Shown in pieces: positions 27,022-47,074 of a stretch of 64,000 nt of DNA. The stretch covers positions 288,001-352,000 of the forward strand of contig CAVYSE010000028.1 in the NCBI GenBank assembly GCA_963771075.1. The letters run 5' to 3'. Origin of the DNA: a candidate division FCPU426 bacterium (GTDB lineage Bacteria > Oederibacteriota > Muellerivitia > Muellerivitales > Muellerivitaceae). Under the pieces are notes generated by a model. It had not been told where the DNA came from. It did not search any database and saw nothing but the letters and a program-made list of their open reading frames with translations. Within the stretch, counting starts at the first letter, position 1; each line of letters opens with the position of its first letter. The translations under genes were made by a program, and so were the position numbers.

Positions 27022-27630
27022 GCTGACCGCCAGGCCCGTCATTCGATCCGCGGGAAAGGGTCTCAAAAGCTCCTTCAGCTTCTTGAAATCCCGGTTATCC
27101 ACCGAATCCATCCACAAGGGAAAATCCTTTTCTTCCAGTATCACCGGCATCCGGTCGTGGATGGCCCTCACTTCCGCGTTTGGCGTGGTAGTCATGAGGC
27201 TTAAGGAATCAATGGTTCCCGTTTCCAATGTTCTGGGTGGCCCAAATCCCGGCCACCGCGAAGGGCCTCTCATCCTTCATTTTGAAATAATAGGGGCTGG
27301 GTTTCCCTCGCCTCGTGCCGCCAAACATAAAACCCATCCATCGGCACCAGACAACGCCATTTCTCGAAACTATCTTGAAAAAGGGTCCGGTCCTGGATGT
27401 CCTCCGCGCGGAGTATTGATGACCAACCGTCCGCCCTGGGTCCAGGAAGCCACGAACCCCCATTGAAGCATCTTGACGATCCGCGTTTGACTATCCATGG
27501 GGCGGATGACCGCAGGAACCAGGTGGGATGGAGCGATGTTATAGCTGGGTTTCCAATCAAAGGGTTTGTCCAGTTTGAATAACCCGGTTAGGGAGGACGG
27601 GCTGCTTTTTAGGACATATCGGGTACACAT
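26938..27630 (-). CDS. SOS response-associated peptidase (SRAP/YedK); frameshifted
   Basis: N-terminal MC.RY, 'YNIAPS', 'RCLVPMDGFY', 'IHDRMPVIL', 'VSSLVN' in successive frames. Confidence 0.88.
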
Positions 27631-27961: not shown

Positions 27962-28450
27962 TTAAAAGAACTCCCACTTGCTGAACATTTTTTTCATTCC
28001 CGGCTCGCTCCAGGCGGTGTTTCCCTTCAAGGCCTTCATGGCCTTGGCCCGGGAAAACTCAAAATGCGCCACCTTTTGAAGACTGTCCCAGCTTGGCAAC
28101 CCATACGAGTCTCTTTCCAGCACATAAACGATATCCACCTTGACCATGTCCGCCTTCGCCGTAGCGGGATGAAGCTTGGCGGTTAATTCCAGGGCGGCGT
28201 CCGCAAGACGATATTTCCGGTCCTCCCCCTGGAAATTGGTTTTCGCGTCCTGGGCGTTCCAGAAATAGTGGACATAAGTCTCCTTATTGGAAACCAGGGT
28301 GTTCTTGGTAAACCAATCTACCCACGGGACGTCCGAGGCTTTCCAATGGCCCTGCGGGATGGTGATGACCGTCACTTGGGCGGTTGGCTCGGTCTGGGCC
28401 TTCAAAAGGCACGCCAAAAGTAGAAAGAACAAGGTCCATCGGGTTCTCAT
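27962..28450 (-). CDS. Secreted protein of unknown family (paralogue of 31187-31723)
   Basis: Signal peptide; shares 'YVH.FWNAQD', 'KVDIVYVL.RD.YG.P.W', 'VAH.EFSR'. Confidence 0.75.
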   Translation of the reverse strand: MRTRWTLFFLLLACLLKAQTEPTAQVTVITIPQGHWKASDVPWVDWFTKNTLVSNKETYVHYFWNAQDAKTNFQGEDRKYRLADAALELTAKLHPATAKADMVKVDIVYVLERDSYGLPSWDSLQKVAHFEFSRAKAMKALKGNTAWSEPGMKKMFSKWEFF

Positions 28451-28506: not shown

Positions 28507-29713
28507 TCAAAAACTCAAAAAACATCTGGTGAATTTTACCACTTGATCCATGGGATAGAAGAAGAGGAGCCATCCATATGCCACAAAAACATTCGTCGCC
28601 GCCACACCGATCCACCGGCTGGCGGGCAAATCCGCGAACCGGCGGCCGAGGGCCGATTTTTCCCAAACATTGTGCACCACCATCCCCAAGCCCTGGTAGA
28701 GGCCCCAAATGCCGAAATGCCAGCTCGCCCCGTGCCACAACCCGCAGATGAAGAAAGTCAACATGAGGTTGAAGAACTGGCGGCCTTTTCCCTTTCGATT
28801 ACCGCCTAAGGAAATATAGATATAGTCCCGGATCCAGCTTGAAAGGGAGATATGCCAGCGCCGCCAAAACTCGGTGATGCTACTGGCAGATATAGGGGAA
28901 ATTGAAATTGGCGGGCAGGTCCAGCCCAATCATTTTGCCCAACCCAATAGCGATGTCGCTGTAGCCCGAGAAATCAAAAAGGATGCGGATGGAGAGGAGG
29001 GTGAGAAGAAGGCTGGTGGTCCCGAAGGACAGATCGGTCCTCTTTTCAAGCAGATGGATCACCATCGTGGCGTTATCCGCGATGACAAGTTTCTTGAAAA
29101 ATCCCAGCAAAACCTGGAAAAAACCCAGCAAGGCCTTTTCGGTCTCCGGGCGCTTTAATCCCGTCCTGAAGCTGGGCAAGGAAAGGCTGGTAGCGCTTAA
29201 TAGGGCCCCGAAACGATGGAGGGATAAAAAGAAGCAGAAAATGCCGAACTTGACCGGATTCTTCACCGGTTCACTGCCATGGTAAACGTCCGTCAGGTAA
29301 TGGACAAACTCGAAGGTGAAGAAAGATATGCCAAGGGGCATGGCGGGCTGGTAGGCGTGACCTAGAAGCCATTCCCCCGCCCCCCCGCCCAGGAGACTTC
29401 CAAGCGAAGAGACCAAGAGATGCTGGTACTTGTAATACAACAGTCCAACCAAGGGAACCAGGAGCGCGAAAAAGAATATCCATTTTCCCTTGCGCGGCTC
29501 TCCCCTTTTTTGCGCGATTTTCAAAGCAAAGAAATAGGTCAAGACCGCCATGACAAGGATGGGTTGGATTCCCGCGGGCCCGGCGAAATAGTATTGGAAG
29601 ACCACGCTGGCGATGAGCGCGAAGACAAGCCGAACCTGGGCCGTGGGCATGAGCCAAAGCAGGATGTAAAAGAGGACGAAAAAGATAAAAAACCAACTGG
29701 TGTTGAAGATCAA
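28507..29713 (-). CDS. MBOAT O-acyltransferase (DltB/PatA/AlgI type), no C-terminal Tyr motif; frameshifted
   Basis: 'PLGISFFTF', 'KKLVIAD', 'DFSGYSDIA', 'EFWRRWHISLSSW', catalytic 'GLWHGA'. Confidence 0.9.
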
Positions 29714-29730
29714 AAGGTATCCCCGGTTTC

Positions 29731-29850
29731 CTAAAAATCCACATAAATGAACTTGGATGCGGACAGGTCCCCCGAAAACAGGAGGATTGCCAGTAAGAGG
29801 AGAAAGAGCACCAGCCCCAATCCCATGCCTTTCAAGAACGAGCGATCCAT
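29731..29850 (-). CDS. DltX/PatC-like 39-aa membrane peptide
   Basis: Single TM helix, C-terminal FIYVDF; TGATG-coupled to the upstream SGNH gene; immediately precedes MBOAT. Confidence 0.85.
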   Translation of the reverse strand: MDRSFLKGMGLGLVLFLLLLAILLFSGDLSASKFIYVDF

Positions 29851-30955
29851 CAACTGGTCCCCTTTCCGTTGAGAAGTTCGGACAGATCCTTGGCGTAAGC
29901 CTGGTTGCCCTCGGGTGTCAAATGGCAATGATCGAGGAATAGAGCCGGTTCATAACGGTTGGACCAATCCCGGAAATCCATGCCTTGGAAATAATGGGTG
30001 TGACCTCATGAACGTTCGCAAGGTTTTTCCGGTTGAATTCATAACTTGGGCGGTCCAGATAATCACCCATAAATCCGGGATTCTGCGGAGACAAAATTAC
30101 CTCCACCGGAACGCCGCATTCTTTCAACCTTCCCAAAAGGAGGTCCAAGCTTTGAAAGGGCAGTGCGTCTGCCGGCCAATGATAGGCCTGGTAATAGGTC
30201 GCGATCTTGAGCTTCAACCCCGCCTCCACGAAATCCGAATCCTCCTTGGGCGGTCCCATGACATGCTCAAGCTGTCGCTGGAAAAAATCCTTCTGGCTGG
30301 GGTAATACCATAGATTTTTTGCCATTTGACTTTCGCGAAAAAGGAAACAATGACGGGATAGGAAGCCGTAGAGTTGGTCGCTCAGGGCGTTTTCTTCCGT
30401 CCGCTTGGGGTCGGTCCCAATGGCTTGAAGTATGGAGGAGGGCAGGTCTTCCTTCAAAAATTCCCGAGAGAGGGCCTTTGGGCCGGACGCGAAATCTTGG
30501 GCGAACATCCGGAAGTTGAGGATCAAAAGAATTTTTTCCGGCGGGAGTTGATTTGGAGGAATGTTTCCCCGCTGGATTTCACCTGCCAACGCCGCCAGAT
30601 CGGGCAGGAGGGCCCCGTCCGCCCCGAGGGGAATGAGATGACTCCCCCTTCCGCTCAATTCTTGGTTTAAATAAATCCCCAAGGTCTTTTGCCGGGCTTT
30701 CGGCAGGCGGTGTTCCATCAAGGCAGTCGCTCCCAGGATGCTATCCCCCAGTGCCAACACCCGGGGCCCCTCCCCGGGTGCCATGTAACGCAACCGGTCC
30801 CGGATCTCGGCAAGGCTTGTGAAATCCGAGGTCAAATTGAATTGGCGGTACCAAAAACCCGACGGCACGGACAGGCGCAAGAATAGTTCGAATAGAAAAA
30901 TTAAGCCCAACAGAGAAACCAGGGCACCTTGAGCAAGTTTCTTTGAAAAGGTCAT
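29850..30955 (-). CDS. Membrane-anchored SGNH-like acyltransferase (DltD/AlgJ/PatB-like); frameshifted near 3' end
   Basis: N-terminal TM, 'LALGDS'; DxxH motif 'FLDHCHLTPEGN' in an alternative frame ending at 29850. Confidence 0.75.
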
Positions 30956-31186: not shown

Positions 31187-31723
31187 TTAATAAAATTCCA
31201 CCGCGGAGAATATTTTTTTCATCCTAGCTTCGGTCAGGGGTTTATTTTCTTTCGACCATTCGACCGCCGATGTCCGGGAGAACTCATAATGGGCCACCCG
31301 GTGCATGGTATTCCAGCGGGGTTGTCCGTAATTATCCCGTTGCAGTACGTAGACAATATCTACCTTGGCCAGATCCGAGGTCGCCGTTTCAGGTTGGAGT
31401 TTCACGGCCATTTCCAGCGCCGATTCGGCCAAGCGCCTTTTCTTGTCCTTGCCCTTGAAATTATCCCTTAAATCCTGGGCGTTCCAGAAAAAATGGACAT
31501 AATCGGTTTTGTCGGTGACTTGGGCGTTATCCTTGAACCATTCATCCCAGGGAACGGCATCCATCGACCATTTTTTGATAAGGGCGTGGTGCTGGACAGG
31601 AACCGCCATCGTGGAAAGGGTATCCGACCCGTTCATATCCGCCGTCGGGGTCGCCAGGGGCTCTTGAGCCGAAGCCATCCTTGCGATGATTAAAAAGCTC
31701 AAGAACAAAACGATTTTTCTCAT
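31187..31723 (-). CDS. Secreted protein of unknown family (paralogue of 27962-28450)
   Basis: Signal peptide MRKIVLF...ASA; shared conserved blocks. Confidence 0.75.
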   Translation of the reverse strand: MRKIVLFLSFLIIARMASAQEPLATPTADMNGSDTLSTMAVPVQHHALIKKWSMDAVPWDEWFKDNAQVTDKTDYVHFFWNAQDLRDNFKGKDKKRRLAESALEMAVKLQPETATSDLAKVDIVYVLQRDNYGQPRWNTMHRVAHYEFSRTSAVEWSKENKPLTEARMKKIFSAVEFY

Positions 31724-31968
31724 TTTCGATTCCCTTCCCCGCCCTTGTTTATACTCAATTAGCCCGCAACAAGAGGTAAAACGCAAGGATGTCCTACGAA
31801 AACAACCCCTCAACATCGCATAAAGATATGCGATTTGATAATTTCCATAAAGTACATTATGGCTTGGGCTTTCTCAAAATGGGTTAGGATGGGATAAAAT
31901 AAAAAGGTTCGGACTTTTGAACCCCTTGGTCATGAGGGGGTTTACCTAAGGGCTTTACCGGGGGAAAA

Positions 31969-32424
31969 ATGAAAAAGCTATGGATTCCCATTTTACTTTT
32001 GATTCTGGCATTAAACGCGAATGAATGTCCCGCCAAGGACACGCCCGATTTAGCGAAACAATATAAACTTGTCTCGGTCTATTATTCCGTGCCGGACAAC
32101 GACCAACAAAATTTCGCCAACGTCGTGTTCCGTTTCGCCTGGAACGGCAAAACGCCCTCTCAAATCGCCGTTCAATTCGTCAACCGGGCCTATGCCGACC
32201 GGAAACTCAAGTTCGCGATCAAGGACGTCACTTCCAAAAAACTCGTGCTTTTGGACCCGGTTCATAATTCCCGATTCGGGACGGAATCGTTAAAGGCGAA
32301 CTCGAGGGGGAAAATTTGGTCCGGTGAAGTGGACAACATCAATGACAGTTTTTCGCTTCATGTCTGGAACGGTTCGGGCGACGAATTCGACAAGGTGCCC
32401 ATCTCCCTCAAAGACCAGCAATGA
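31969..32424 (+). CDS. Secreted beta-rich hypothetical protein
   Basis: Signal peptide MKKLWIPILLLILALNA; upstream of fkbH. Confidence 0.65.
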   Translation: MKKLWIPILLLILALNANECPAKDTPDLAKQYKLVSVYYSVPDNDQQNFANVVFRFAWNGKTPSQIAVQFVNRAYADRKLKFAIKDVTSKKLVLLDPVHNSRFGTESLKANSRGKIWSGEVDNINDSFSLHVWNGSGDEFDKVPISLKDQQ

Positions 32425-32671: not shown

Positions 32672-34564
32672 ATGAATATGGACTGGCTTCCAAAAAACCC
32701 CGACTTGGCCAAGCAACTGACAGCGATCAAAAAATCGCCTCCTGCGGAAGCTTGGGGCCTGTTGACCGCGATCGCCCAACAGGACCTCAATTTCCTCGAA
32801 ACCTTACAGGTGGATAAGGCTTTAAAGGAAAAATTCGCCGACGCCCCGCCCCCCACCCTCAAAACCAAACCGGTTCGTTTGGCCCTTTTGAGTTCCTGCA
32901 CGGTGGACCAGCTCTTGCCTGGCATTCGGATCGGCGCGCTACGCCGAGAAATCTGGGCCACCACCTACCTGACGGATTACGGGCAATCCCTTCAGGAGAT
33001 AATGGAGCCCTCTTCCCGTCTTCACCTCTTCAAGCCAACCACGGTCCTAGTCGCCTATGACGCGATCCATTTATTCGGAACCCAGCCCTTGGGCCAAAAG
33101 GCGGAAGACGCCGACCTAAAGCTGGAGCGGGCCCTGGAAGAGGTTCAAAACCTTTGGCGGCTTTCCCGGGAAAAATGGGGAACCCGGGTTATCCAACAAA
33201 CTCCTCTTCCGCTTTTTCCTCCCCTGATGGGTCAAAATGAGCATCGGCTCTCGGGTTCCCCCGCGCACCTCTTGCGTCTTTTTAACGAGCGCCTGCGCGG
33301 CTTGGCCGACGAGCAAAAGGTGGATCTGCTTGACCTTAACGCTTGGGCTTCGGGGGAAGGCTTGAGGGCTTGGCACGACCCCGTCCTTTGGCACAAGGCC
33401 AAGCAGGAAGTGAGCCCGGTAGCGGGACCCCTTTATGGAGATCTAGTCGGCCGTCTTTTGGCGGCCCAGCAGGGACGCTCCTCCAAATGTCTGGTCCTGG
33501 ACCTGGACAATACCCTCTGGGGCGGTGTGATCGGAGATGACGGGCTTGAGGGCATTCACTTGGGACAGGGGAGCGCTTTGGGGGAAGCCTACGTGGCCTT
33601 CCAACGATACGCCCGGGACCTGTCCGGCCGGGGCGTCATCCTGGCGGTTTGCTCCAAGAACGACGAGAAGAACGCCTTGGAACCCTTTGAGAAGCATCCG
33701 GAAATGATCTTAAGGAAAAAAGATATCGCCTGTTTCGTGGCCAATTGGAACGACAAGGCGTCGAACCTTAAGCTCATCGCCCAGCAATTGAACATCGGGT
33801 TGGATTCACTGGTCTTCGTGGATGACAATCCCTTCGAGCGTAACCAGGTAAGGGGAGAATGCCCGCAGGTGGCGGTGCCCGAACTGCCCGAGGATCCCTC
33901 GCTTTATCCCGCCTGCCTGGCGAACGCGGGATATTTCGAGTCCATCGCCCTGACCCGGGACGACCTGGCTCGTACCGAGCAATACCAAAAGAACCTGGAG
34001 CGGGAGAAGGCGCAAGCCTCTTTTGGTAACGTGGCCGAGTACCTCAAAAGCCTGGAGATGGAGCTGATCTGGGGGCCTTTTGACCCCCTCAGCCTGCCCC
34101 GCGTCACCCAGTTGATCAATAAAACCAACCAATTCAATTTGACGACCCGCCGTTATTCGGAGGAAGATACCTCCCGTTTCGCGTCCGACCCCAAGTCCAT
34201 TACCCTGCGTTGCCGGTTGACCGACCGCTTCGGGGATAATGGGATCATCGGCATTGTGATCGCAGTCCAGGAAGGCCCCGATGACTGGGACATCGACACC
34301 TGGCTGATGAGCTGCCGGGTTCTGGGCCGGGGCGTGGAACAGGCCATGCTGGACCTGCTGGTCCAGGAAGTTTCGGCACGGGGAGGGAAAAGGTTGTTGG
34401 GCCGTTACATCCCCACCGAAAAGAATGGTATGGTCAAAGACCATTACGCCGGCCTGGGATTTGTCGCCTTGGGGGACCCTGGGCCGGGGGAGACCCGTTG
34501 GGTTTTAGGGGTCGATGACAAAAAACGCTTCGAATATCCCATCCATTTGAAAAAAGGAAACTAA
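32672..34564 (+). CDS. FkbH-like HAD-IIIC glyceryl transferase/phosphatase
   Basis: 'LVLDLDNTLWGG', 'CSKN', 'VFVDDNPFER', 'KTNQFN', 'DRFGDNG', 'LMSCRVLGR'. Confidence 0.93.
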   Translation: MNMDWLPKNPDLAKQLTAIKKSPPAEAWGLLTAIAQQDLNFLETLQVDKALKEKFADAPPPTLKTKPVRLALLSSCTVDQLLPGIRIGALRREIWATTYLTDYGQSLQEIMEPSSRLHLFKPTTVLVAYDAIHLFGTQPLGQKAEDADLKLERALEEVQNLWRLSREKWGTRVIQQTPLPLFPPLMGQNEHRLSGSPAHLLRLFNERLRGLADEQKVDLLDLNAWASGEGLRAWHDPVLWHKAKQEVSPVAGPLYGDLVGRLLAAQQGRSSKCLVLDLDNTLWGGVIGDDGLEGIHLGQGSALGEAYVAFQRYARDLSGRGVILAVCSKNDEKNALEPFEKHPEMILRKKDIACFVANWNDKASNLKLIAQQLNIGLDSLVFVDDNPFERNQVRGECPQVAVPELPEDPSLYPACLANAGYFESIALTRDDLARTEQYQKNLEREKAQASFGNVAEYLKSLEMELIWGPFDPLSLPRVTQLINKTNQFNLTTRRYSEEDTSRFASDPKSITLRCRLTDRFGDNGIIGIVIAVQEGPDDWDIDTWLMSCRVLGRGVEQAMLDLLVQEVSARGGKRLLGRYIPTEKNGMVKDHYAGLGFVALGDPGPGETRWVLGVDDKKRFEYPIHLKKGN

Positions 34565-34566
34565 TC

Positions 34567-34818
34567 ATGGACTCGTCGGAAATTTTAACCCGCTTGACCC
34601 GGATCATCACCCAGGTCTTGGGGGATGATTCAATTGTCTTGAATCTGGCCACCACCGCTCAGGATGTGCCGGGCTGGGACTCCTTCAACCACATCAATAT
34701 CATCGTTGGGACGGAGGCGGAGTTCGGGATCAAGTTCAACGCGTCCGAATTGGAGGACCTGAAGAACGTCGGGGATTTCGTGGCGCTGGTTGAAAAACGG
34801 ATGGCCAAGAAAAAATAA
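34567..34818 (+). CDS. Acyl carrier protein
   Basis: 83 aa, acidic, phosphopantetheine site 'GWDSFNH'. Confidence 0.92.
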   Translation: MDSSEILTRLTRIITQVLGDDSIVLNLATTAQDVPGWDSFNHINIIVGTEAEFGIKFNASELEDLKNVGDFVALVEKRMAKKK

Positions 34819-34842
34819 CCCACGCCCCTTTAAGGACCCGGC

Positions 34843-36438
34843 ATGCTTTTTAACTCCACGCTCTTTCTCCTCCTTTTTTTGCCTGTTTCCCTGATCGTTT
34901 ATTTCCTGCTAGGTTACTACCGGATGAACGCCGCCAAATTTTGGCTGGCTTTCCTGTCCTTCGTCTTTTATGGCTGGTGGAACCCAAGCTACCTCCTGCT
35001 ATTGGCCCTTTCGATCCTATTCAACTATTGCTTCGGTTATTGCATCCAGCTTTTCCAGGATAAACCCAAGATCTCCCGTTGGATCCTGGCGGCGGGGATC
35101 ACGGGCAATTTGGGGACGCTTTTTTACTACAAATACCTGCTCACCCTCCTCAATTGGTTTCATGAAATGGGCGTCTATCACGGCCCCGATTGGGGTGCCC
35201 TGATCCTTCCCCTCGGCATTTCCTTTTTCACCTTCACCCAGATCGGCTTTCTGGTCGATACCCAGGGAGGGATCGCCAAGGAGCGGGGGTTTTTGGAATA
35301 CGTGCTGTTCGTCACCTTTTTCCCCCATTTGTTCGCCGGGCCCATCCTCCACCACCGCGAGATCATGCCCCAGTTTTCCAAAAAAGAGACCTATTTCCTG
35401 AACTGGAACAATCTCGCGGTTGGGTTGGGTATCTTTATCATTGGGTTGGCCAAGAAGGTCCTGATCGCGGACCAGATTGCCCCCATCGCCAACGATATCT
35501 TCCGGCATACGGCGGAAAAACATGTTTTGGAAGCGTGGACGGGAGTGCTGGCCTATTCCTTCCAGCTTTATTTTGATTTCGCCGGATATTCGGAAATGGC
35601 CCTGGGTTTGGCACGAATGTTCAACGTGAAGTTTCCCGCTAACTTCGACTCCCCTTATAAAAGCAAAAACATCATCGACTTTTGGCAGCGATGGCACATT
35701 TCCCTCACCCGCTATTTGACGCTTTACCTCTACAATCCCCTCTCCCTTTGGATCATGCGCCGCCGGGCGGCCAAGGGGATGGCCTTATTAAGGCCCCAAG
35801 AAACGACTTGGGAAGGTTTTTTCATGATGCTAGCCCTTCCCACGCTTTACACCATGATCCTGGCGGGGGTTTGGCATGGAGCGGGTTTCCAATTCTTTAT
35901 ATTCGGACTCCTTCACGGACTTTATCTTTGTATCAATCATGCCTGGCGCTTTTTCGGCCCCAAACAATCGAAAACACCCCTGAAAACCCTCGTTTCCTGG
36001 CTCGACGGAGCCTGGAAATGGGGCCTGACCTATTTCGCCGTTCTGATCGCCCAGATCTTTTTCCGGGCGAAGACGGCCAAGGACGCCTGGCAATTGATCC
36101 AATGTCTTTTCGGTCGTGGAACAGGGGACAGCCCGGGCGGGGCCACGGGCGTCTTGGAATCGATCCTGGATTATTTCGGTACTCCCGTTCCCTATTGGAA
36201 CTATTCCAACTCCCTGGTCACGCTGGGGGTCCTCTTTGTGTTCATCCTCGTGATGCCCAATGTCCTCCAGATTTATGACCGGGAAGAGGCTTCCCTGACC
36301 AAGCTTCGGTCGGCCCCGGCCTTATTCCAATTTCAATTCCGCCCAAATGTCCTTTGGGGGTTTTTATTGGCGGTGTTGGCTTTGGTCACTTTGCTGATGG
36401 TGACAGGTAATTCCGAATTTTTATATTTCCGTTTCTGA
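34843..36438 (+). CDS. MBOAT O-acyltransferase (AlgI type) with fused C-terminal Tyr motif
   Basis: 'LPLGISFFTF', 'FDFAGYS', 'DFWQRWHISL', 'GVWHGA'; ends EFLYFRF. Confidence 0.93.
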   Translation: MLFNSTLFLLLFLPVSLIVYFLLGYYRMNAAKFWLAFLSFVFYGWWNPSYLLLLALSILFNYCFGYCIQLFQDKPKISRWILAAGITGNLGTLFYYKYLLTLLNWFHEMGVYHGPDWGALILPLGISFFTFTQIGFLVDTQGGIAKERGFLEYVLFVTFFPHLFAGPILHHREIMPQFSKKETYFLNWNNLAVGLGIFIIGLAKKVLIADQIAPIANDIFRHTAEKHVLEAWTGVLAYSFQLYFDFAGYSEMALGLARMFNVKFPANFDSPYKSKNIIDFWQRWHISLTRYLTLYLYNPLSLWIMRRRAAKGMALLRPQETTWEGFFMMLALPTLYTMILAGVWHGAGFQFFIFGLLHGLYLCINHAWRFFGPKQSKTPLKTLVSWLDGAWKWGLTYFAVLIAQIFFRAKTAKDAWQLIQCLFGRGTGDSPGGATGVLESILDYFGTPVPYWNYSNSLVTLGVLFVFILVMPNVLQIYDREEASLTKLRSAPALFQFQFRPNVLWGFLLAVLALVTLLMVTGNSEFLYFRF

Positions 36439-36453
36439 TAGGACGTTTAAAAG

Positions 36454-37473
36454 ATGCATAAATTCATGATTTCTTTCACCTTGGTCCTCGCGTTCGGACT
36501 GGCCTTTGCCTGGAACTGGGGGGTGAGTCATCGCCTGTCTTACCTGAGCCGGGATTACGCCCTCCTGACCGGCAAAAACAGGCTGATGGACGGCTGGAAC
36601 AAGCCCGGATTGGCCATCTTCGGGGACTCGACCGTCATGGACGGCGTCTTGCCCGAAAGGTTGGGGCCGGACGTGGTCAATTTCGCCTTAAATGGCTGCA
36701 CGCCTATCGAAAGTTATTTCATGGCGCGCCGTTTGCTGAAAGGCCCGGTCCCACCGAAAGCGGTTCTCCTTTCCTATAACGCCTATCACTTCGTGCATCC
36801 GGATTTTTACTGGGAAAACACGGTGAAATTCGGCGTGATCAGCGGCTTGGAAGCCGACGAGGTCTTGGCCCATATCCTCGAAACGAACGATCAGGAACTA
36901 TTGACCACCTCGAGCCTTTGGCATTTGGAGCAACGGCTCTATTCCTTCCTGCTCTCGCGCGGCTTTCCCTCCTACTATATGTCGTCCCTTTTCGCCGAAC
37001 GCTATGGGGTCCGGGAAAAGGAAAACGAGGAGGCCCTCAAGGTCATCGCCCGCACCCGGGGCCAATATTACTTCCCCCTGTCGGATGGGTCCCAAGACTT
37101 GAACGCGGACACCAAATTGAAGACCTTTAATGTCAGCCCGGTGGTGGATATTTATTTCCGAAAAACCCTCGATATGCTCCGAGAAGCCCATATTCCGCTT
37201 TATTTTTACGCCATGCCCATCAACGAATCGTCCGTTCCCCATCTTGACCCGGGTGTTTTCAAAAGTTATCAGGTTTATTTGGAGGGTCTGGCGAAAGCCG
37301 ATCCCCAATTCCACATCCTTTATCCCATGCGGACGGTTTATCCCTGGAGGCTTTTTTCCGACTACGCCCATTTGAATAAAAATGGTACCCAGCGTTTTAA
37401 CAGGGAATTCGCCCGGATCTTGAACCGTTCCAGGGTCCCGGGCGGGCCTTATGGAGCCCCTTCCGGTCGATGA
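36454..37473 (+). CDS. Membrane-anchored SGNH-like acyltransferase (DltD/AlgJ-like)
   Basis: N-terminal TM, 'IFGDST', 'FSDYAHLN'. Confidence 0.8.
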   Translation: MHKFMISFTLVLAFGLAFAWNWGVSHRLSYLSRDYALLTGKNRLMDGWNKPGLAIFGDSTVMDGVLPERLGPDVVNFALNGCTPIESYFMARRLLKGPVPPKAVLLSYNAYHFVHPDFYWENTVKFGVISGLEADEVLAHILETNDQELLTTSSLWHLEQRLYSFLLSRGFPSYYMSSLFAERYGVREKENEEALKVIARTRGQYYFPLSDGSQDLNADTKLKTFNVSPVVDIYFRKTLDMLREAHIPLYFYAMPINESSVPHLDPGVFKSYQVYLEGLAKADPQFHILYPMRTVYPWRLFSDYAHLNKNGTQRFNREFARILNRSRVPGGPYGAPSGR

Positions 37474-37531
37474 CTTCATTTGGTCGTTGAACCTTCTAAT
37501 TTACCTGCCACAAAGTTGGGTTAAGATTGGT

Positions 37532-39004
37532 ATGGTTTTGACCGATTCAAAGGAGTTGTCCTTGCCCGGAATCAAGCTTTACGCGAAAAAAAAGTTCAAC
37601 CCAAGGGACCTGGGCGCTTTCGCGGCCTTAACGGGCGATCAAAACCCGATCCATATGGACGCCCTCGTCGCGAGGAGGGCTTTTGAGGGTTCCCGTGTGG
37701 TACATGGAGTATTGGTGCTGCTTCATGGTTTGGATCAGTGGGCCAGGGTACAAAAGAAATGGCCTGTTCAAAGAATAAAGTGTGACTTTAAAAAACCGGT
37801 TCTCCTGGATGAATCAGTCGAATATGTTTGGGGAGAAACCGGGACGGGCTCCATCAGGATAAGGGCCCTGGTGGATGAGGTCGTCTGTGCTGAGATCGAG
37901 TTATTCGGGGAAATGGGAAATGGTTCTTCCCTCCTCCCCTCCCGGGGAGGTCACGAGCCGCTCGATGCCTTAAAAAGCCCTTTAGAATGGGACCCGAGCA
38001 GTGGAAACAAGTTATCCGGGACCCTCTCCAATCCCCCAAACGCCCTTCTTAAAAAACATTTTCCCGATCTTTGCCGTTGGCTCCCGGCTTCGAAGGCATC
38101 CGCCCTGTCCCGCCTTTCCTATATCGTCGGCATGATCTGCCCTGGCCTTTACTCGCTTTTTGCTTCCCTGGATATCTCCCTCACGGACGACAGCCCCTCC
38201 CCCGGTTTGACCCTCTTTTCCATTCATCATTACGATGATCGTTTCCATCAAGTGGAGATCCAGGTCAGCGGTGAATGGGGAGGAACGGTCAAGGCCTTTC
38301 TCCGTCCCAAGCCCTACCAACAACCCGGAATGGAATCGATCCGGGGTTTGGTGGTGCCGGAGGAATTTCTATCGGCCCGGGCACTGGTCATCGGCGGATC
38401 CAGGGGGTTAGGGGAGCTCACGGCCAAGCTTCTTTGTTCGGGTGGAGCAAGGGTCACTCTGGGTTATCGGGCGGGAAAAGAGGAAGCTTTGCGAATTAAG
38501 GACGAAATATCAAAATCCGGCCTGGGATCCTGCCAGCCGCTCCAGGTGGATATCCTCAAGCCCCCTTCCAAAACGTTTATCGAAGCGTTAAGCGGGATCA
38601 ACGGTCTTTATTACTTTCCAACTCCCGTGATCTTCAAAAAAGAATCGAGACTATTCGTCAAAAAGCATTTCGACGATTTCATCGACTATTACGTCGACCG
38701 CTTTTATGCGGTTTGTTTAGCCCTTGAAAATAATTCAGCAAATAAGGTTCAGGTCTTCTTTCCCTCCACCGTTTTCATCGATCAAAGGCCAAACGGTATG
38801 ACGGGTTACGCCATGGCAAAGGCGGCTGCCGAGATCTTGATCCAGGACATCAACCGTTCTTTCAAAAAGGTCAACGTGGTCTCGGCCCGTTTGCCCCGAC
38901 TTGGAAGCGATCAAACCAATTCGATCTTTGAAACCAAGAAGGAGGACGGCATATCCGTCCTACTTCCCATTCTTCGATCCATTCAAAGCCGTTTGAACGA
39001 ATGA
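37532..39004 (+). CDS. MaoC-type dehydratase / SDR ketoreductase fusion
   Basis: 'FAALTGDQNPIH...HGVL' (MaoC), 'IGGSRGLG' and 'YAMAK' (SDR). Confidence 0.88.
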   Translation: MVLTDSKELSLPGIKLYAKKKFNPRDLGAFAALTGDQNPIHMDALVARRAFEGSRVVHGVLVLLHGLDQWARVQKKWPVQRIKCDFKKPVLLDESVEYVWGETGTGSIRIRALVDEVVCAEIELFGEMGNGSSLLPSRGGHEPLDALKSPLEWDPSSGNKLSGTLSNPPNALLKKHFPDLCRWLPASKASALSRLSYIVGMICPGLYSLFASLDISLTDDSPSPGLTLFSIHHYDDRFHQVEIQVSGEWGGTVKAFLRPKPYQQPGMESIRGLVVPEEFLSARALVIGGSRGLGELTAKLLCSGGARVTLGYRAGKEEALRIKDEISKSGLGSCQPLQVDILKPPSKTFIEALSGINGLYYFPTPVIFKKESRLFVKKHFDDFIDYYVDRFYAVCLALENNSANKVQVFFPSTVFIDQRPNGMTGYAMAKAAAEILIQDINRSFKKVNVVSARLPRLGSDQTNSIFETKKEDGISVLLPILRSIQSRLNE

Positions 39005-39038: not shown

Positions 39039-40940
39039 ATGAGCCGTTTTTTATTATTATTCGTACTGGCCGCCCTTACCGCCGGGCTCGAACCTTGCGG
39101 GGCCCTCACCCCCATGGACTATTACCAAAGCCTAGTGGCGGGAGCCGATGAGGACGGCTTTCAGGATGGCGGCTTTTCCCTGGCTCGTTTTAACAATCCT
39201 TCCGGCTTGGCTTTTGACGCCACGGGCCGCCAACTTTATGTAGCGGATAGGGACAATCAAAGGATACGGGTTGTGGATCTGGACCAGGACAATAGGGTAA
39301 AAACCCTGGCAGGTACCGGCGCGGTCGGATCTCAGGATGGCCCCCTATTCAAAGCCACCTTTAACGCTCCTTCCTTACTCGCCGCGATACCCAATCACCG
39401 CCTGGCCCTTTTTGACGCCGGAAGCGGGCGAATCCGCATTTTGGACCTTCAAAGCCAAACTGTTTCCACCCTCGCGAAAGGCGTCACGATTTGGAACATG
39501 ATTTACCTTCCACAAGACGATTGCCTGTATTTTTCGGAGCCCGACAACAAAAAAATCGAGAAATTGAACATGAAATCATTGGCGATCACGGATGTCGTGT
39601 CAGGCCAATCCCAGCTTTCTTCCCCCGGGGCTTTATGCCTATTTCAGGACCACCTTTGCGTGGCGGACACGCGCTTGCCCACGATTTATGAAGTGAGTGC
39701 GAATCCGGCTTCCGCTTCTGTTTCCCTTTTCCCCGTGGGAAAGGCTAAGGATATCCTGGCCTTGGCCTCTTCGGACGGCATCCTTTATGCGTTGGAGAAA
39801 GGCGACCAGTTGGTCAAGGTGGGTTTGACCGGCCCCGCCACGATCCAATTCCCCACCCCTTGGGGTTTTTTGCTCAAGAATGGGGAACATGAAGGCGCGA
39901 TGAGCCTATTCCATCTTCAAGAGGAAAACCCCGTCGGGTTCCTTTCTTCCCCCTCCGAACCCCGGAAGCTCTACCTATCCACCCAACATTCGATTTTGAG
40001 CGTGCGGGATTATGATTTTGAAAAATGGTGGTCCGCCTTCAAGGATAACGGGCATCACTTGACGGATTTTGATTACCCCGCCCCCAAACCGCCTCGAACC
40101 TTCCGGATCTTGGCCATCGGAACCTCCCGTAATTCCACGTCGGTATTCCTACCCCCCGACCTCAAGGCCGGCATTGACGAGAACATCGAGACACCCCGGG
40201 TCCTCACCTTTTCCAAACGGTTGGAGCTTTTGTTGAACACCGAGGCCACCCTTCAAAACTCGAAGGTTCATTTCGAGGTTTTAAACCTGACCCACCGCGG
40301 GGAACCCATGAGCACCTACGGTTATTATGAAGTCCCTGATTTCGTAAAAAAATATGACATTGATCTGGTGATTGGCCTGGCGGATCAAACGGGCTACATC
40401 GATTATTTTGAGAGGCCCATGACATCCGAAGGCATCCCCGCCCATTCCCTCGATTACGAATATATGTTCAAGCCCCTCTCCCAACGGGCGAATTCGGACG
40501 TGGCCAAAAACCTGCTGGAGCGCTGTAAAGCCCTGAAGATTCCCCTATCGGATAAACAGGATTACCCGGGCGACGGCACTTGGAGCCTTTTTTGCAATGG
40601 CGACTCGCAAATGCAAAGGGATCTCCGGGAGATGACAGGCCGAAGGCTCCAACTCCTTGATCAAAAACTGAAAAATATGAAAACGTCCGGGGGAAATAGA
40701 CCGGGTTTGGTTTTTTATTACGTCCCCGGAGGTGCCCTCCCTAATGATTGCGGCGGGCCTTTTTGGAGGGAGGTTTGCGCCCAGTTCCGCTTGAGTTTCC
40801 TCGACTTGAGCGAACCTTTTAACGCCCTGAAAACCAGCTATGCCCCCGTCTATTTCGACCATTTCACGGCCTACGGAAACGAACTGGTCGCCCTGCTGTT
40901 AGGGCATTACCTGGTCGAGGATAAGTTCATTCCTTTTTGA
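39039..40940 (+). CDS. Secreted NHL beta-propeller + SGNH-like domain protein (paralogue 1)
   Basis: 'FNNPSGLA...LYVADRDNQRIR'; 'FRILAIGTS'; 'DHFT'. Confidence 0.75.
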   Translation: MSRFLLLFVLAALTAGLEPCGALTPMDYYQSLVAGADEDGFQDGGFSLARFNNPSGLAFDATGRQLYVADRDNQRIRVVDLDQDNRVKTLAGTGAVGSQDGPLFKATFNAPSLLAAIPNHRLALFDAGSGRIRILDLQSQTVSTLAKGVTIWNMIYLPQDDCLYFSEPDNKKIEKLNMKSLAITDVVSGQSQLSSPGALCLFQDHLCVADTRLPTIYEVSANPASASVSLFPVGKAKDILALASSDGILYALEKGDQLVKVGLTGPATIQFPTPWGFLLKNGEHEGAMSLFHLQEENPVGFLSSPSEPRKLYLSTQHSILSVRDYDFEKWWSAFKDNGHHLTDFDYPAPKPPRTFRILAIGTSRNSTSVFLPPDLKAGIDENIETPRVLTFSKRLELLLNTEATLQNSKVHFEVLNLTHRGEPMSTYGYYEVPDFVKKYDIDLVIGLADQTGYIDYFERPMTSEGIPAHSLDYEYMFKPLSQRANSDVAKNLLERCKALKIPLSDKQDYPGDGTWSLFCNGDSQMQRDLREMTGRRLQLLDQKLKNMKTSGGNRPGLVFYYVPGGALPNDCGGPFWREVCAQFRLSFLDLSEPFNALKTSYAPVYFDHFTAYGNELVALLLGHYLVEDKFIPF

Positions 40941-40960
40941 TCCTTTGCTTTCATGTTTAA

Positions 40961-42991
40961 TCACTTGACCGGAGGTGTTTGGGGGGCCTCAGGGGGGCTA
41001 TCCAGTACCGGGGTAGGTGTCGGCTCGGGAACGGGGAAGTCAATGATATGTCGCTTGATCATTTCATGGGCGATAAAGTAAGCCACGATGTTGCAGAACT
41101 CGGGTGTGTAATGGCCGATACCCCCGCCCTCATCCGTGGGAAAATAGGTCGGCGTGGAAACAATGAAATCATCCACCAAGTCGATATAAGGCCAACCTTG
41201 TTGTTCGGCCACCGTTTTCCAGAAATTCCGGTATAGTTCCAAGGTTCCCGGAGCGTATCGGGATAGGGTCAAGGCCATTTGATACCGGACCGGTTTTCCA
41301 TCCCTGGTTTTTAATTTTCTCAGTTTTTCCGACAACATGCCTATAGGCTTCCCGAGTAATTCAAGTAAATCCTGGCGGATGGCCTTGTCGGTAATCGTCT
41401 TGTCCATATCCTCCATTTGAAAGGCAACATCGGACTTTGGGATGATCCACCCTTTCGCCTTGCATTTATTGTAAAAATCCTCCGGTAGGCCCTTGGGAAT
41501 CTTGTCCTTCCAAGGCTTCAAACCGTATTCCCCATCCCAATTCATTTCTGGAATTCCCTCGGGTGTCATGGGAAACCAGTAATAGCTGATGTAACCGTAA
41601 GTTGGGACAGTCCCGAAGAGATACAAGACCAAATCAATGTCAAATTTATTGACCAAATCGGGTACCTCATAATAGGGCCAAAGAAAAGAGGGCATTCCTT
41701 GATAGCCATGCCCCACGGACAGGACCTCATAATTCATCGGAACGTCATCCAGGGCCGCCTCGGTATTCAACAAAAGCTCCAACCTCTTGGGCATCGCCAA
41801 GATTCGGGAAGGCCCATAAGGTTGATTGGCCGGTTGATAAAAATATGAAAAGGTCAAGGAATCACCCACGATCAATATTCGATAGGTATGGGCGGGCTTT
41901 TTAAAAGGATAGGTGTAATCATTGAGGTTACTGACCGGGTTTCTTGAGTCCAAACCCCATTTCTCATGGATGTCAAAATCGTAATCTTTCAATCGTAGGA
42001 TGTTTTGACTAGTGCCTCCAGTCATGTAAAAACATCTTTCCTGGTTCGGGTCCGCCACGAACCCGGCGCTCTCCTCGTTAAAATGACATAGGTTGGTGAG
42101 ATAGGGACCCCAAGCCGAGGTAATATTCAAATCTCCTTGAGGAATCAGCCGCCCCCAGGGGGCTCCTTGGGAATCGGTCAAACAATAAAGTTTGTCGGCC
42201 CAGCTTGCCATCGCGAGAATATTCCCGTTGATCCCATTTTGTGAAATGATACTGACACTGGTGGAAAAACTGGCGGAAACAGTATTGGGGTGGCAATCAA
42301 CTTGGTAGGTAATCGAACCCATGCGGTTGGAGACGCAAAGATGTCCTTGATAGAGACAAAGGGCGGCGGGGTTTGGGAGATGTTGATCGTTTTTGAGGAT
42401 CACCTGGGTCAATCCGGTTTTAAGGTCTAGCCTCTTTAGAAAACCTTCAATGGGTTGGGTGAAATAGAGAGAGTCCTCGGTTGGGACATAGGTTAGGTTC
42501 CAGACGTCTGGGAGGGATGGATCTTTTGGTTTTCCATCCTTGTCTGGATCCAGTAACAGGGTGTTCACTTGCTTTTGATCCAAATCAAGGACTCGGATCT
42601 TAGCATTTCCTGAATCAAAGACCGCCAAACGGTTACCGGAAAGAAAGGCCAAGACCGTCGGTTTATTAAAGAGCGCCTGGTCGAAGGGGCCGTCTTTAAA
42701 ACCCGGCTTTCCTGACCCTGCCAGTGTCTCCACTCGGTTGTTTTCCTCCAGAAAAACAACCCGGACACAATGATTTTCCCGATCCGCTACGAAAAGTTCT
42801 GTCCCCTCGGGGTTGGTGGCCAGTCCCTGGGGATTGTTAAAAAGAGCGGATTGAAAAGGCCCATCCCGGTAACCCGTGTCACCTTCTCCCGCAACCAGGT
42901 CGTGATACTGAACGAGTGGTTTCAAGGCAAATGCATCGGATATCAAGCCGTTGCACAAGAGAAAAGCCAATAACAAAAGTCGAAAATTCAT
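40961..42991 (-). CDS. Secreted NHL beta-propeller + SGNH-like domain protein (paralogue 2)
   Basis: 'FNNPQGLA...LFVADRENHCVR'; 'YRILIVGDS'; 'GHYT'. Confidence 0.75.
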   Translation of the reverse strand: MNFRLLLLAFLLCNGLISDAFALKPLVQYHDLVAGEGDTGYRDGPFQSALFNNPQGLATNPEGTELFVADRENHCVRVVFLEENNRVETLAGSGKPGFKDGPFDQALFNKPTVLAFLSGNRLAVFDSGNAKIRVLDLDQKQVNTLLLDPDKDGKPKDPSLPDVWNLTYVPTEDSLYFTQPIEGFLKRLDLKTGLTQVILKNDQHLPNPAALCLYQGHLCVSNRMGSITYQVDCHPNTVSASFSTSVSIISQNGINGNILAMASWADKLYCLTDSQGAPWGRLIPQGDLNITSAWGPYLTNLCHFNEESAGFVADPNQERCFYMTGGTSQNILRLKDYDFDIHEKWGLDSRNPVSNLNDYTYPFKKPAHTYRILIVGDSLTFSYFYQPANQPYGPSRILAMPKRLELLLNTEAALDDVPMNYEVLSVGHGYQGMPSFLWPYYEVPDLVNKFDIDLVLYLFGTVPTYGYISYYWFPMTPEGIPEMNWDGEYGLKPWKDKIPKGLPEDFYNKCKAKGWIIPKSDVAFQMEDMDKTITDKAIRQDLLELLGKPIGMLSEKLRKLKTRDGKPVRYQMALTLSRYAPGTLELYRNFWKTVAEQQGWPYIDLVDDFIVSTPTYFPTDEGGGIGHYTPEFCNIVAYFIAHEMIKRHIIDFPVPEPTPTPVLDSPPEAPQTPPVK

Positions 42992-43174
42992 CGTTTCCTC
43001 ATAATAAAGTCTGAAGAATCCTTTTTCACCAAGTGTAATTTCAATGGTGAACAAAATTCATATTATGTCTATCTTAGGGTACTATTCTAAGGTTATCGAC
43101 CCCCTTTCAAGATTGGAAGGGATATTCCTGGTGACCCCAAACCGCCGCCCTTCATTTTGAAAGGAACCCGCGTA

Positions 43175-45193
43175 ATGGAAAACTATTTTTCAAAACACAA
43201 CTCTTTGTTCTTTCTTCTCTTCTTCGCCGTACTCTTTCCACAAACGTCCTGGGCCCTCCGGCCCTATTCTTCCCGAATGGCGCTTGTTGCCGGCACGACC
43301 AGTCCAGGTTTCCAAGATGGGGATTTCTTAACCTCCACTTTTAACCGTCCACTGGGAATCACGATTAACCCGGATGGAACCGAACTATTTATCTCCGATA
43401 CGGACAATAACCGTATCCGAATTGTTCATTTGGACCAGAAAAACAACGTCACCACCTTATCCGGGGGTAGGCAAGCGGGAAATCAAAATGGTTCCTTGAC
43501 GGAAGCCCGGTTTAATAAACCCCAGCAAATCCTCTATCTGCCGGGGGACCGGCTGGCGGTGAATGACGCCGGTAATAAGCTTTTGCGCCTGGTGGACCTG
43601 AAGGCGGGGACGGTTTCCACCCTTGCCGGAAGCGCCTCCGCCACCTTGAATGAAGGCCCCGCAACCCAGGTATCCATGAGTTCCATCCAGGACATGGCCT
43701 ACTTTTCGGATCTCGATTCCATCCTTCTGGCTTTCTACGATAAGCCGGGGATTAAAAGGCTGGACCTGAAAAGCGGCACGCTGACCCAGATCAGCTCTGT
43801 TCCCACCAACGGCTTGAACCAGCTAAAACCAGGGGCCCTCCTGGTTTGGGACAAAAAGGTCTACCTTTCCGACAGCAGTTCCCCCAAGGTATTCGCCATG
43901 GAATTGAATGAGAAGGGCGTTGCCGATCCGGTATCCATCGCGACCGCCATGTCCTCGGTGATTGCCTTGGCGCAAAACGGAGGCATCCTGTATGCCCTTC
44001 AGAGAAACGACATGGACCCGATGGATCGGCTTCTTCCCTATCATTATCCGGTCACCTTTGTTTCCGACTGGGGCGACGCGGTACAGAATCCGGCCGGCCG
44101 TCTTCCCACTTTTAAGGACATCTTTAACAACGATTCTCATATGTCGTTTGTGACCGATCCAAACGACAAACGGAAATTTTACCTACTTAACCCTAGCTCG
44201 AATATCGTGACGTCCTTCCGGGATCTCTTTGGAACGGAATTCGCGGGTGGGGACGACCGCAATTACAACGGATTCAACGATTTCGCCTATCCCGAGATCA
44301 AACCGCCCCATACCTTCCGCATCATGCTGGTGGGCGATTCCCGTCCGACCGTAATCCACATGATTCTTTCGACCGATCCCACCCGGAGGCAGCTGACCCT
44401 CTGCAAGAGGATGGAGACCGAACTGAATATGTTGGCGGCCATTGACGACCAACCCCTCAATTACGAGGTGGAGTTCCTGGGACATTCCGCCGGTAACCCG
44501 TTATTCCATTGGCCCACCTACGAAGTCCCCCCCTTGGCCGCCAAAAACGACGTCGATTTGGTGATCCTTTTCATGACGGTGCTTGCGGGGGATAATCCCC
44601 TTTCCGCCTATTTCATGAGCCCCTTGACCAAAGAGGGGATTATGCCTTCCTACTATTACGATCCGGAATTCTGCATGAAACCGGCTGAGCAACGGATTTC
44701 CCCGGGGATCTTGAGGAAATTCTACGACCTCCTCAAGGCCCACCACCTGGTTCAAATCAAGGACAACAATTTCATATTGGACAACGCCCTCGAAAAGGAA
44801 CCGGACCTTCATGACACGGTAGTCCAGCTTTATGGAAAACCAGTCGCCGTGCTAAACCAAAGGCTATCCTCCATCAAAACTTCCTCAGGTAAGCCTGTGC
44901 GCCTGCTTCTTTGTTTCGTCCCCGACACCAACTACCTGATGGACTTTTCCCCCGAATCCAAAATCTGGGAGGACGCGGCCAGCCGGTTCAATTTTCCTTT
45001 TTTGAACCTTTTTCCCGAGGTCACGGCCACGAAGCTTTCCTTTTACCCTCAAGATGAGGAAAGCTGGGCGGGTCATTTCACCGCCAACGGCCACCTGTAC
45101 ATGGGTTCGCTTCTCGTGCACGACTTGATCAAAAAGGGCCTCATCCCCTGGGAAAAGAACCCCGAAGCCACTCCTACTATCGATGAAAAGTAA
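43175..45193 (+). CDS. Secreted NHL beta-propeller + SGNH-like domain protein (paralogue 3)
   Basis: 'FNRPLGIT...LFISDTDNNRIR'; 'FRIMLVGDS'; 'GHFTANG'. Confidence 0.75.
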   Translation: MENYFSKHNSLFFLLFFAVLFPQTSWALRPYSSRMALVAGTTSPGFQDGDFLTSTFNRPLGITINPDGTELFISDTDNNRIRIVHLDQKNNVTTLSGGRQAGNQNGSLTEARFNKPQQILYLPGDRLAVNDAGNKLLRLVDLKAGTVSTLAGSASATLNEGPATQVSMSSIQDMAYFSDLDSILLAFYDKPGIKRLDLKSGTLTQISSVPTNGLNQLKPGALLVWDKKVYLSDSSSPKVFAMELNEKGVADPVSIATAMSSVIALAQNGGILYALQRNDMDPMDRLLPYHYPVTFVSDWGDAVQNPAGRLPTFKDIFNNDSHMSFVTDPNDKRKFYLLNPSSNIVTSFRDLFGTEFAGGDDRNYNGFNDFAYPEIKPPHTFRIMLVGDSRPTVIHMILSTDPTRRQLTLCKRMETELNMLAAIDDQPLNYEVEFLGHSAGNPLFHWPTYEVPPLAAKNDVDLVILFMTVLAGDNPLSAYFMSPLTKEGIMPSYYYDPEFCMKPAEQRISPGILRKFYDLLKAHHLVQIKDNNFILDNALEKEPDLHDTVVQLYGKPVAVLNQRLSSIKTSSGKPVRLLLCFVPDTNYLMDFSPESKIWEDAASRFNFPFLNLFPEVTATKLSFYPQDEESWAGHFTANGHLYMGSLLVHDLIKKGLIPWEKNPEATPTIDEK

Positions 45194-45310
45194 TATCGCC
45201 CTTTTCTTAAGGGATAAAAGTGGCTCACCCCTTCGGCCTATCCCGGCCGATGACATCGGGTAAATTGCTTCCGTCCACCGAATAAAAACCGCACGGTGCA
45301 AAAAAGAAAC

Positions 45311-46180: not shown

Positions 46181-46218
46181 AACTAAAGCTCTCTATTAAA
46201 TTCCCAAGAGGAAGCGGC

Positions 46219-47073: not shown

Positions 47074-47074
47074 C

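Follow-up and report, generated by a model that had tools for sequence, protein, structure and literature searches.

The window analysed here is a 64,000-nucleotide stretch of contig CAVYSE010000028.1 from a candidate division FCPU426 bacterium. Positions 32672-39004 of its plus strand hold five co-oriented genes with intact catalytic motifs, encoding an FkbH-type loader, an acyl carrier protein (ACP), a membrane-bound O-acyltransferase (MBOAT), an SGNH protein and a MaoC dehydratase fused to an SDR ketoreductase (MaoC-SDR). A sequence-only reading had taken this gene set, hereafter the cassette, for a Dlt-like pathway fed by lactyl- or glyceryl-ACP, and its description of the five genes was borne out by open reading frames (ORFs), family scans and motif conservation. 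The features are collected in Table 1.

Table 1. Features of the cassette and of the gene that follows it (window coordinates)
Feature	Position	Strand	Basis
FkbH-type glyceryl loader, 630 aa: FkbH_N/SGNH-like N-terminal domain, HAD-IIIC core, Cys-bearing C-terminal domain	32672..34564	+	TIGR01686
Dedicated ACP of 83 aa with the motif WDS39; net charge -4	34567..34818	+	PF00550
MBOAT, 531 aa, catalytic His345, fused C-terminal acyl-shuttle hexapeptide	34843..36438	+	PF03062
MBOAT extended helix, residues 286-310, predicted ACP docking site	35698..35772	+	linker survey, HMM alignment, AlphaFold
FLYFRF acyl-shuttle motif (FxYxxF, Tyr528)	36418..36435	+	sequence, alignment
DltD-like SGNH acyltransferase, 339 aa, with Ser59/Asp303/His306 and a hydrophobic helix at the N-terminus	36454..37473	+	alignment, model
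MaoC dehydratase (double hotdog) with a fused SDR ketoreductase, 490 aa	37532..39004 (ORF open from 37451)	+	PF01575, adh_short
Secreted protein with an NHL propeller and a GDSL/SGNH-like part (probable sixth gene)	39039..40940	+	NHL PF01436, synteny

The first four genes are separated by 2, 24 and 15 bp, the ACP gene ending 24 bp 5' of the MBOAT gene. The MaoC-SDR gene can start at ATG 37451, overlapping the SGNH gene by 23 bp, or at ATG 37532, leaving a 58 bp gap; the latter, which yields the 490-aa database protein P0001, is probably the translation start. The probable sixth gene, which the sequence-only reading did not include, follows MaoC-SDR after 34 bp. Contigs from four other public DNA runs (metagenomes of bog, soil and unspecified origin) carry no indel within the five genes and span both the SGNH/MaoC-SDR and the MaoC-SDR/NHL junctions. 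By tblastn, the cassette genes are single-copy in the genome, save for one distant MBOAT paralogue 5 kb upstream. A promoter and terminator scan was uninformative (4 promoter-like sequences against 5.8 in shuffles, 21 terminator-like against 16.1), and no public RNA run is listed as containing the window.

The window holds no ketoacyl synthase (KS) or nonribosomal peptide synthetase (NRPS) domain, as first reported, and in the 96.7%-complete genome no condensation domain was found and KS genes occur only stand-alone, with no modular polyketide synthase (PKS) or NRPS: the six KS matches lie in ORFs of at most 465 aa on contigs other than that of the cassette. The genome also encodes two phosphopantetheinyl transferases and three ACP matches.

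The loader scores 308 bits against TIGR01686 (cut-off 147), is homologous to PDB entry 3slr (E 3e-65) and retains the motifs D277-L-D-N-T, SKN328, FVDD382 and S547-C-R. FkbH proteins load glycerate from 1,3-bisphosphoglycerate (PMC13122637, PMC4552970). The carrier matches PF00550 at 22.6 bits (cut-off 20.8) and is 29% identical to an Enterococcus DltC across 51 aa; among 29 aligned ACPs, W37 and D38 are invariant and S39 is kept in at least 90%.

The MBOAT matches PF03062 at 61 bits and displays W281xxWH, G342xWH345 and a C-terminal F526-L-Y528-F-R-F, an instance of the FxYxxF acyl-shuttle motif as defined in PMC12148441; Y528 and F531 are invariant across 22 aligned MBOATs. The best match of its AlphaFold model (pLDDT 84) is DltB (E 3e-13), and its score against the DltB equivalog TIGR04091 (163 bits) lies under the cut-off of 375. 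In a FastTree phylogeny, the protein stands apart from three DltBs and is nested among PatA/AlgI-type MBOATs with a fused shuttle.

The segment joining the WxxWH and GxWH motifs spans 36 residues and carries a GG[N/S]R loop in ordinary MBOATs, a Neisseria PatA-like protein included, whereas it comprises 43 residues in the three DltBs and 56 helix-rich residues in the window MBOAT, none of which has the loop. In the AlphaFold model, residues 286-310 form one continuous helix in place of the loop. DltC contacts DltB residues M302, V305, I306, M309, K312 and R317 (PMC11035591; similarly PMC9338922), which align to N298, S301, L302, M305, R308 and M313 of the window protein in a hidden Markov model (HMM) alignment to 6bug. 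Alignment and model together lead us to predict that helix 286-310 is the ACP docking site.

We examined MBOAT relatives in the best 80 of 596 metagenome loci, scoring 76 MBOAT ORFs (fragments shorter than 330 aa and unparsed ORFs left out) and counting an ACP or FkbH within 2.5 kb as adjacent. Most relatives have neither ACP nor FkbH, and a relaxed motif scan of these loci returned no further ACPs. Loop-less MBOATs are adjacent to ACP/FkbH in eight cases and non-adjacent in none (three on short contigs), whereas loop-bearing MBOATs are adjacent in two and non-adjacent in 25 (38 on short contigs; Fisher p 2e-6); in one of the two linked loop-bearing cases, the carrier is a housekeeping-type AcpP whose gene neighbours a KS gene. 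When all sets are pooled and only those with long enough flanks are counted, 46/51 loop-less and 3/31 loop-bearing MBOATs adjoin ACP/FkbH, and four of the five non-adjacent loop-less proteins have one 2.6-2.8 kb away. The window MBOAT belongs to a clade of 31 rows (FastTree support 99), of which 26 have ACP/FkbH within 2.5 kb; the others are three on short contigs, one unlinked and one from Ralstonia with an ACP and an AMP-ligase. This Ralstonia locus (L270:5736-11351) and L116, whose MBOAT falls in the same clade, each combine ACP, AMP-binding ligase and AlgX-type SGNH, with two AlgX-type genes, and are candidates, on gene content, for a Gram-negative counterpart of Dlt that uses an adenylation loader.

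The SGNH protein has no Pfam match above cut-off (DUF1574 E 0.003). Its G57-D-S59 and D303xxH306 motifs are invariant in 38 homologues, and an N-terminal helix provides a membrane anchor. The top eight PDB matches of its AlphaFold model (pLDDT 87) in Foldseek are all DltD chains (E 8.7e-6 to 4.6e-4, TM ~0.43); the HMM match to DltD is weak (E 0.015), and a pairwise BLASTP against an Enterococcus DltD was not significant. The fold is thus DltD-like, not AlgJ-like.

In the related genomes G052 and G044, an NHL-SGNH gene lies directly 3' of the SGNH gene, and the C-terminal part of the 39039..40940 product resembles GDSL/SGNH clusters, which we treat as a lead. Three members of this secreted family, which joins an NHL propeller to an SGNH/GDSL-like domain, are encoded in the window (39039-45193) and roughly four others elsewhere in the genome (contigs C11 and C3); in related genomes, they cluster around both the cassette and a second MBOAT module described below. 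It is possible that the NHL-SGNH proteins are AlgX-like terminal transferases.

MaoC-SDR matches PF01575 (43 bits) and adh_short (26 bits) and has the motifs D63xNPxH, GGSRGLG315 and Y453xxxK. Profile A1, made from 62 MaoC-SDR homologues out of 120 listed, was tested on four plasmid matches found by tblastn, and it matches the N-terminus of a PKS on plasmid p1 of Burkholderia FERM BP-3421 (E 3e-45), which we take to be Fr9C. The alignment spans both hotdog halves and the SDR, and the PKS retains DxNPxH, GGSRGLG and YxxxK. This 4.9-kaa protein has the domain order MaoC-SDR-FkbH-ACP-KS, and a profile of the long FkbH family matches it over positions 92-593 of 627 (E 3e-100). The spliceostatin/FR901464 cluster sits on plasmid 1 of this strain (PMC10589681), and dehydratase-ketoreductase (DH-KR) proteins turn glyceryl-ACP into lactyl-ACP in FR901464 and lankacidin biosynthesis (reviewed in PMC4765723). 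The DH-KR-FkbH-ACP set also opens an Ensifer PKS; no Streptomyces record was among the matches of the plasmid tblastn search with MaoC-SDR. From these alignments, we regard MaoC-SDR and the DH-KR of the PKS starter as genuinely homologous, and the borrowing of PKS-starter chemistry suggested by the sequence-only reading therefore has real DH-KR and FkbH homology behind it.

A search for fused forms over 7995 scored candidates returned only P0121 (MaoC-SDR, FkbH, ACP, thioesterase) and P0122 (FkbH, MaoC-SDR, ACP and a tail of an unassigned domain), and it was insensitive, since it missed the p1 PKS that tblastn later found.

Within the bacterium's own phylum, FkbH occurs in 9 of 99 genomes. In its family (31 genomes), FkbH and a close MBOAT (at least 63% identity) are found in the same eight, and MaoC-SDR is present in six of these eight and in 0/23 others, the G048 copy being broken. 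Five relatives carry MaoC-SDR upstream of FkbH, at 33-38% identity to the window copy, which is placed, unlike theirs, between the SGNH and NHL-SGNH genes. An approximately unbiased (AU) test rejects a single clade for the window and kin proteins (31 rows, p 1.3e-5). From this lack of monophyly and the different position, we conclude that the activity was re-acquired by xenologous replacement of a lost gene; such a replacement points to selection acting on the coupled activity.

The neighbourhood of the donor module was surveyed more widely from two anchors. The MaoC-SDR-anchored survey took the 80 best among 588 confirmed GTDB stretches, and its profile counts, made within 6 kb, refer to the 79 in which the MaoC domain is present; the FkbH-anchored survey covered 401 sampled Pseudomonadota genomes, with at most three candidates scored per genome. 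The profiles derive from the MaoC-anchored set and are hence more sensitive there. Around MaoC-SDR, BLASTP with the window proteins detected FkbH in 64/80 loci, ACP in 53/80 and MBOAT in 30/80, and the profiles gave 63, 61 and 29 of 79; 19 of the 29 MBOAT-bearing loci also have both FkbH and ACP. Other families recur there: AAC(3)-like proteins in 22 loci, c12 (an unnamed 285-aa family) in 11, AT3 in 10, hexapeptide proteins in seven and WcbI-like proteins in two. FkbH was found in 47 of the 401 Pseudomonadota genomes, at 76 places; 73 regions were analysed, as the other three fall inside loci already covered, and they include ACP in 45, MaoC in 32, MBOAT in 16, AAC(3)-like in 13 and PKS/NRPS in 10. 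All of the PKS/NRPS-linked places are in the low-scoring tail, and among the 20 that score best, 12 lie within 6 kb of an MBOAT and 18 have an ACP. Close FkbH homologues hence adjoin MBOATs or other glycan acyltransferases, and the concern that fkbH/ACP genes might usually be tied to PKS clusters is answered in the negative. MBOAT+SGNH pairs were counted at 20/79 MaoC-SDR loci and 2/73 FkbH places, both underestimates because the SGNH sub-family c42 had no profile.

MBOAT and AAC(3)-like genes are nearly mutually exclusive, occurring together in 1/79 MaoC-SDR loci against about eight expected (Fisher p 1.6e-4, computed over loci that include non-independent kin) and in 0/73 FkbH places. Since other transferases, too, are fed by the FkbH-ACP-MaoC/SDR core, we consider it a swappable donor module. 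The cassette recurs in unrelated bacteria; the donor module is not MBOAT-specific, and in kin MaoC-SDR is optional, its absence giving a predicted glyceryl variant.

Several of these neighbourhoods deserve description in their own right. AAC(3)-like genes (PF02522) lie beside FkbH-ACP-MaoC/SDR in glycan loci (L021-L094, cluster c4, 23 loci; L214-L256) and are fused to FkbH twice (L232, L237); their products score below the cut-offs for AAC(3) resistance genes and are, by their sequence and company, candidates for the ACP-dependent N-lactyl/N-glyceroyl modification of amino sugars. A cytochrome c-pyrroloquinoline quinone (PQQ) dehydrogenase gene adjoins the MBOAT-type cassette at L048, L052, L057, L062, L071, L076, L080, L082 and L117, and the enzyme could oxidise exported lactyl to pyruvoyl outside the cell; it may have a parallel in the lankacidin quinoprotein. 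On a Sinorhizobium meliloti pSymB-type plasmid (L110, 815-5849), MBOAT, a 409-aa gene annotated as a TonB receptor (no Pfam match), ACP and FkbH lie some 9 kb away from the rkp genes for capsule export, and FkbH homologues were found in 40 Sinorhizobium plasmid records; this locus offers an accessible model of the glyceryl variant. Cultured carriers comprise Sphingomonas oligophenolica and Terracidiphilus gabretensis, with S. meliloti for the version without MaoC-SDR.

Starting from the observed gene content, motifs, folds, homologies and co-occurrence of the cassette, we propose the following route. FkbH would load glycerate from 1,3-bisphosphoglycerate onto the ACP, as in the known pathway, and MaoC-SDR would dehydrate glyceryl-ACP to the pyruvoyl form and then reduce it to lactyl-ACP, by analogy with the PKS DH-KR. 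The acylated ACP is predicted to dock on the cytoplasmic helix 286-310 of the MBOAT, and the acyl group would move via Tyr528 and then Ser59 of the SGNH protein, following the MBOAT Tyr shuttle and SGNH Ser relay described in PMC12148441. The NHL-SGNH protein perhaps helps final transfer to an envelope acceptor. We infer both lactyl as the exported group and a glycan as its acceptor. An ACP-fed relay as a whole, whichever acyl group or acceptor it serves, appears highly probable to us; that it places lactyl onto an acceptor beyond the membrane, probably a glycan, is a reading that we favour by a modest degree. The former judgement is the stronger because it adds to the latter two variants that keep the relay and differ in the acyl group or in the acceptor. 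The overall Dlt-like interpretation is supported by comparative genomics, through FkbH linkage, DH-KR homology and the DltB-like helix.

A number of findings weigh against parts of this proposal. No polysaccharide synthesis gene adjoins the cassette in family scans of the 64-kb window. Pairwise identity between MaoC-SDR and the PKS DH-KR is just 26%; G044 and G066 have no MaoC-SDR, nor does the Sinorhizobium pSymB version in the stretch covered, and the 16 Pseudomonadota FkbH+MBOAT places include MaoC in nine and MaoC+SDR in three. In G066, FkbH-ACP and MBOAT-SGNH are on separate contigs, with a transposase after the ACP, and the 18-kb locus of a second orthologous MBOAT-SGNH pair in G049 contains no ACP. 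The position of DltB R317 is not occupied by Arg in the window MBOAT, and the MBOATs of L158 and L202 adjoin FkbH while retaining the GG loop. The loop state requires seven changes on a tree made without the loop columns, and there are only four independent starred pairs (about 2.4 in the same direction, 0.1 in the opposite, sign test p 0.5); because so few independent pairs exist, the evolutionary correlation of loop loss with ACP adjacency is suggestive, not proven.

The alternative that best survives, although we consider it unlikely, retains the ACP-fed relay and has it export glyceryl (or pyruvoyl), MaoC-SDR being an optional editor of part of the pool or of another substrate. It would account for the absence of MaoC-SDR from two of the eight family members and from many FkbH+MBOAT loci, O-glyceryl esters occur on gellan (PMC9104527), and a PQQ dehydrogenase family (c16), which might oxidise lactyl once exported, is found beside the MBOAT-type cassette in eight MaoC-SDR loci. 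MaoC-SDR is nonetheless intact here, lies within the operon, was re-acquired from another lineage and is homologous to a DH-KR characterised as turning glyceryl into lactyl. Less probable again is the same donor and relay acting on an acceptor other than a polysaccharide, namely a glycoprotein glycan, a lipid-linked sugar or a membrane lipid. The cassette has no polysaccharide locus beside it in the window, its neighbours being the NHL-SGNH genes, three PMT_2/TPR-type membrane proteins and hpnCDE hopanoid genes, but glycan-related genes are present in 50/79 MaoC-SDR loci elsewhere and all characterised MBOAT-SGNH pairs covered by PMC12148441 acylate envelope polymers.

We give little credence to the view that MBOAT-SGNH forms an ordinary acetyl-CoA system of the PatAB/AlgIJ kind, with FkbH-ACP-MaoC/SDR feeding a cytoplasmic enzyme or releasing a small molecule. 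The fused shuttle of the MBOAT is typical of acyl-CoA-using MBOATs (PMC12148441), G049 has an orphan MBOAT-SGNH copy, P0121 fuses the donor module to a thioesterase, and elsewhere the module feeds AAC(3)-like, AT3, hexapeptide and WcbI-like proteins. Against this, the operon encodes no alternative transferase, MBOAT and AAC(3)-like genes avoid each other, FkbH and MBOAT match phyletically in 8/31 family genomes, and loss of the GG loop goes with ACP linkage throughout the clade, even with a swapped loader. That the cassette is a trans-acting starter module for a PKS/NRPS encoded elsewhere is very improbable: DH-KR-FkbH-ACP does open the FR901464-plasmid and Ensifer PKSs and 10/73 FkbH places are PKS/NRPS-linked, but the genome has no modular KS or condensation domain and no KS lies within 6 kb of MaoC-SDR at any of the 79 loci.

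Elsewhere in the window, a second MBOAT module (28507-30955, minus strand) contains an SGNH-like gene (29918-30955), a 39-aa DltX-like microprotein (29731-29850) that ends FIYVDF, and a 400-aa MBOAT with the GG[N/S]R loop and no fused shuttle. It is apparently a DltX-type split-shuttle system without a carrier protein, and is kept in G044, G047, G053, G050 and G061, the last four of which have no FkbH/ACP. Single extra bases at 28889, 29163, 29206, 29231 and 30013 break its MBOAT and SGNH genes; because they are absent from the contigs of other public runs, they are probably assembly errors and the module is likely intact. The split NAD synthase (25041-26382) and SRAP (26938-27630) genes may share this cause. 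Small secreted proteins encoded at 27962-28450, 31187-31816 and 31969-32424 have no Pfam matches; two are paralogues with 48% identity, and all are kept beside both MBOAT modules in kin. Positions 45296-56284 hold the hopanoid genes hpnC, hpnD and hpnE, followed by three membrane/TPR proteins of about 700 aa, two with PMT_2 glycosyltransferase matches.

MBOAT/SGNH pathways besides Dlt are described in a 2025 article as having no carrier protein, since acyl-CoA is the donor (PMC12148441); the cassette and its MBOAT clade are predicted exceptions to this rule, with donor chemistry drawn from glycolysis. A full-text search over the main text of mostly open articles returned no description of an FkbH-ACP-MBOAT system, D-alanine was the only group described there for a carrier-fed MBOAT route, and FkbH and MBOAT are co-mentioned for aeruginosin/suomilide NRPS clusters, where they act separately. 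The same literature describes no enzyme route to glyceryl or lactyl glycan substituents. Gellan carries L-glycerate (PMC9104527), lactyl is listed among bacterial glycan substituents (PMC4432689), the genetic basis of N-glyceroyl pseudaminic acid is called a major challenge (PMC5378307), and glyceryl/lactyl glycans also appear in PMC10609480. A broader reading, which we hold to be evenly balanced, is that carrier feeding is not confined to Dlt: several AlgI/PatA-type lineages would have exchanged the GG[N/S]R loop for a DltB-like helix on which ACPs dock, with interchangeable loaders providing glyceryl (FkbH), lactyl (FkbH with DH-KR) or other acyls (adenylation enzymes), FkbH-ACP-(MaoC-SDR) being a general C3-acyl donor for glycan O- and N-acylation. 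If true, this donor would fill the biosynthetic gap behind the glyceryl/lactyl substituents already known, and the donor type of an MBOAT could be predicted from its linker sequence, which would also aid the engineering of polysaccharide acylation. The five-protein set is amenable to in vitro reconstitution.

Comparison with characterised systems places the cassette between several of them. Like Dlt (DltA, DltC, DltB, DltX, DltD; D-alanylation of teichoic acids), it has a dedicated carrier with a phosphopantetheine serine in the operon, an MBOAT with an extended cytoplasmic helix at the DltC-docking site and an FxYxxF Tyr shuttle, and a DltD-like SGNH protein. Unlike Dlt, its loader is FkbH, with no AMP-binding (DltA) gene in the operon, it adds an on-carrier dehydratase/reductase, its shuttle is fused to the MBOAT C-terminus in place of a separate DltX, and its MBOAT falls below the DltB cut-off (163 vs 375 bits). 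With PatA/PatB, AlgI/AlgJ/AlgX and WssH/WssI, it shares an MBOAT of about 480-530 aa that has the catalytic His and a fused C-terminal FxYxxF, beside an SGNH protein with a Ser-Asp-His triad and membrane anchor; these systems, however, use acyl-CoA with no carrier (PMC12148441) and keep the 36-aa GG[N/S]R linker (Neisseria locus), whereas the cassette has an ACP and a 56-aa helix-rich linker. With the FR901464/spliceostatin DH-KR-FkbH-ACP starter (and that of lankacidin), it has in common a homologous MaoC double-hotdog, SDR and long FkbH with catalytic motifs kept, but it consists of stand-alone proteins without a downstream KS module and its product is predicted to reach a membrane acyltransferase rather than chain extension. 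As judged from these comparisons, the cassette would work like Dlt, yet is not a member of it.

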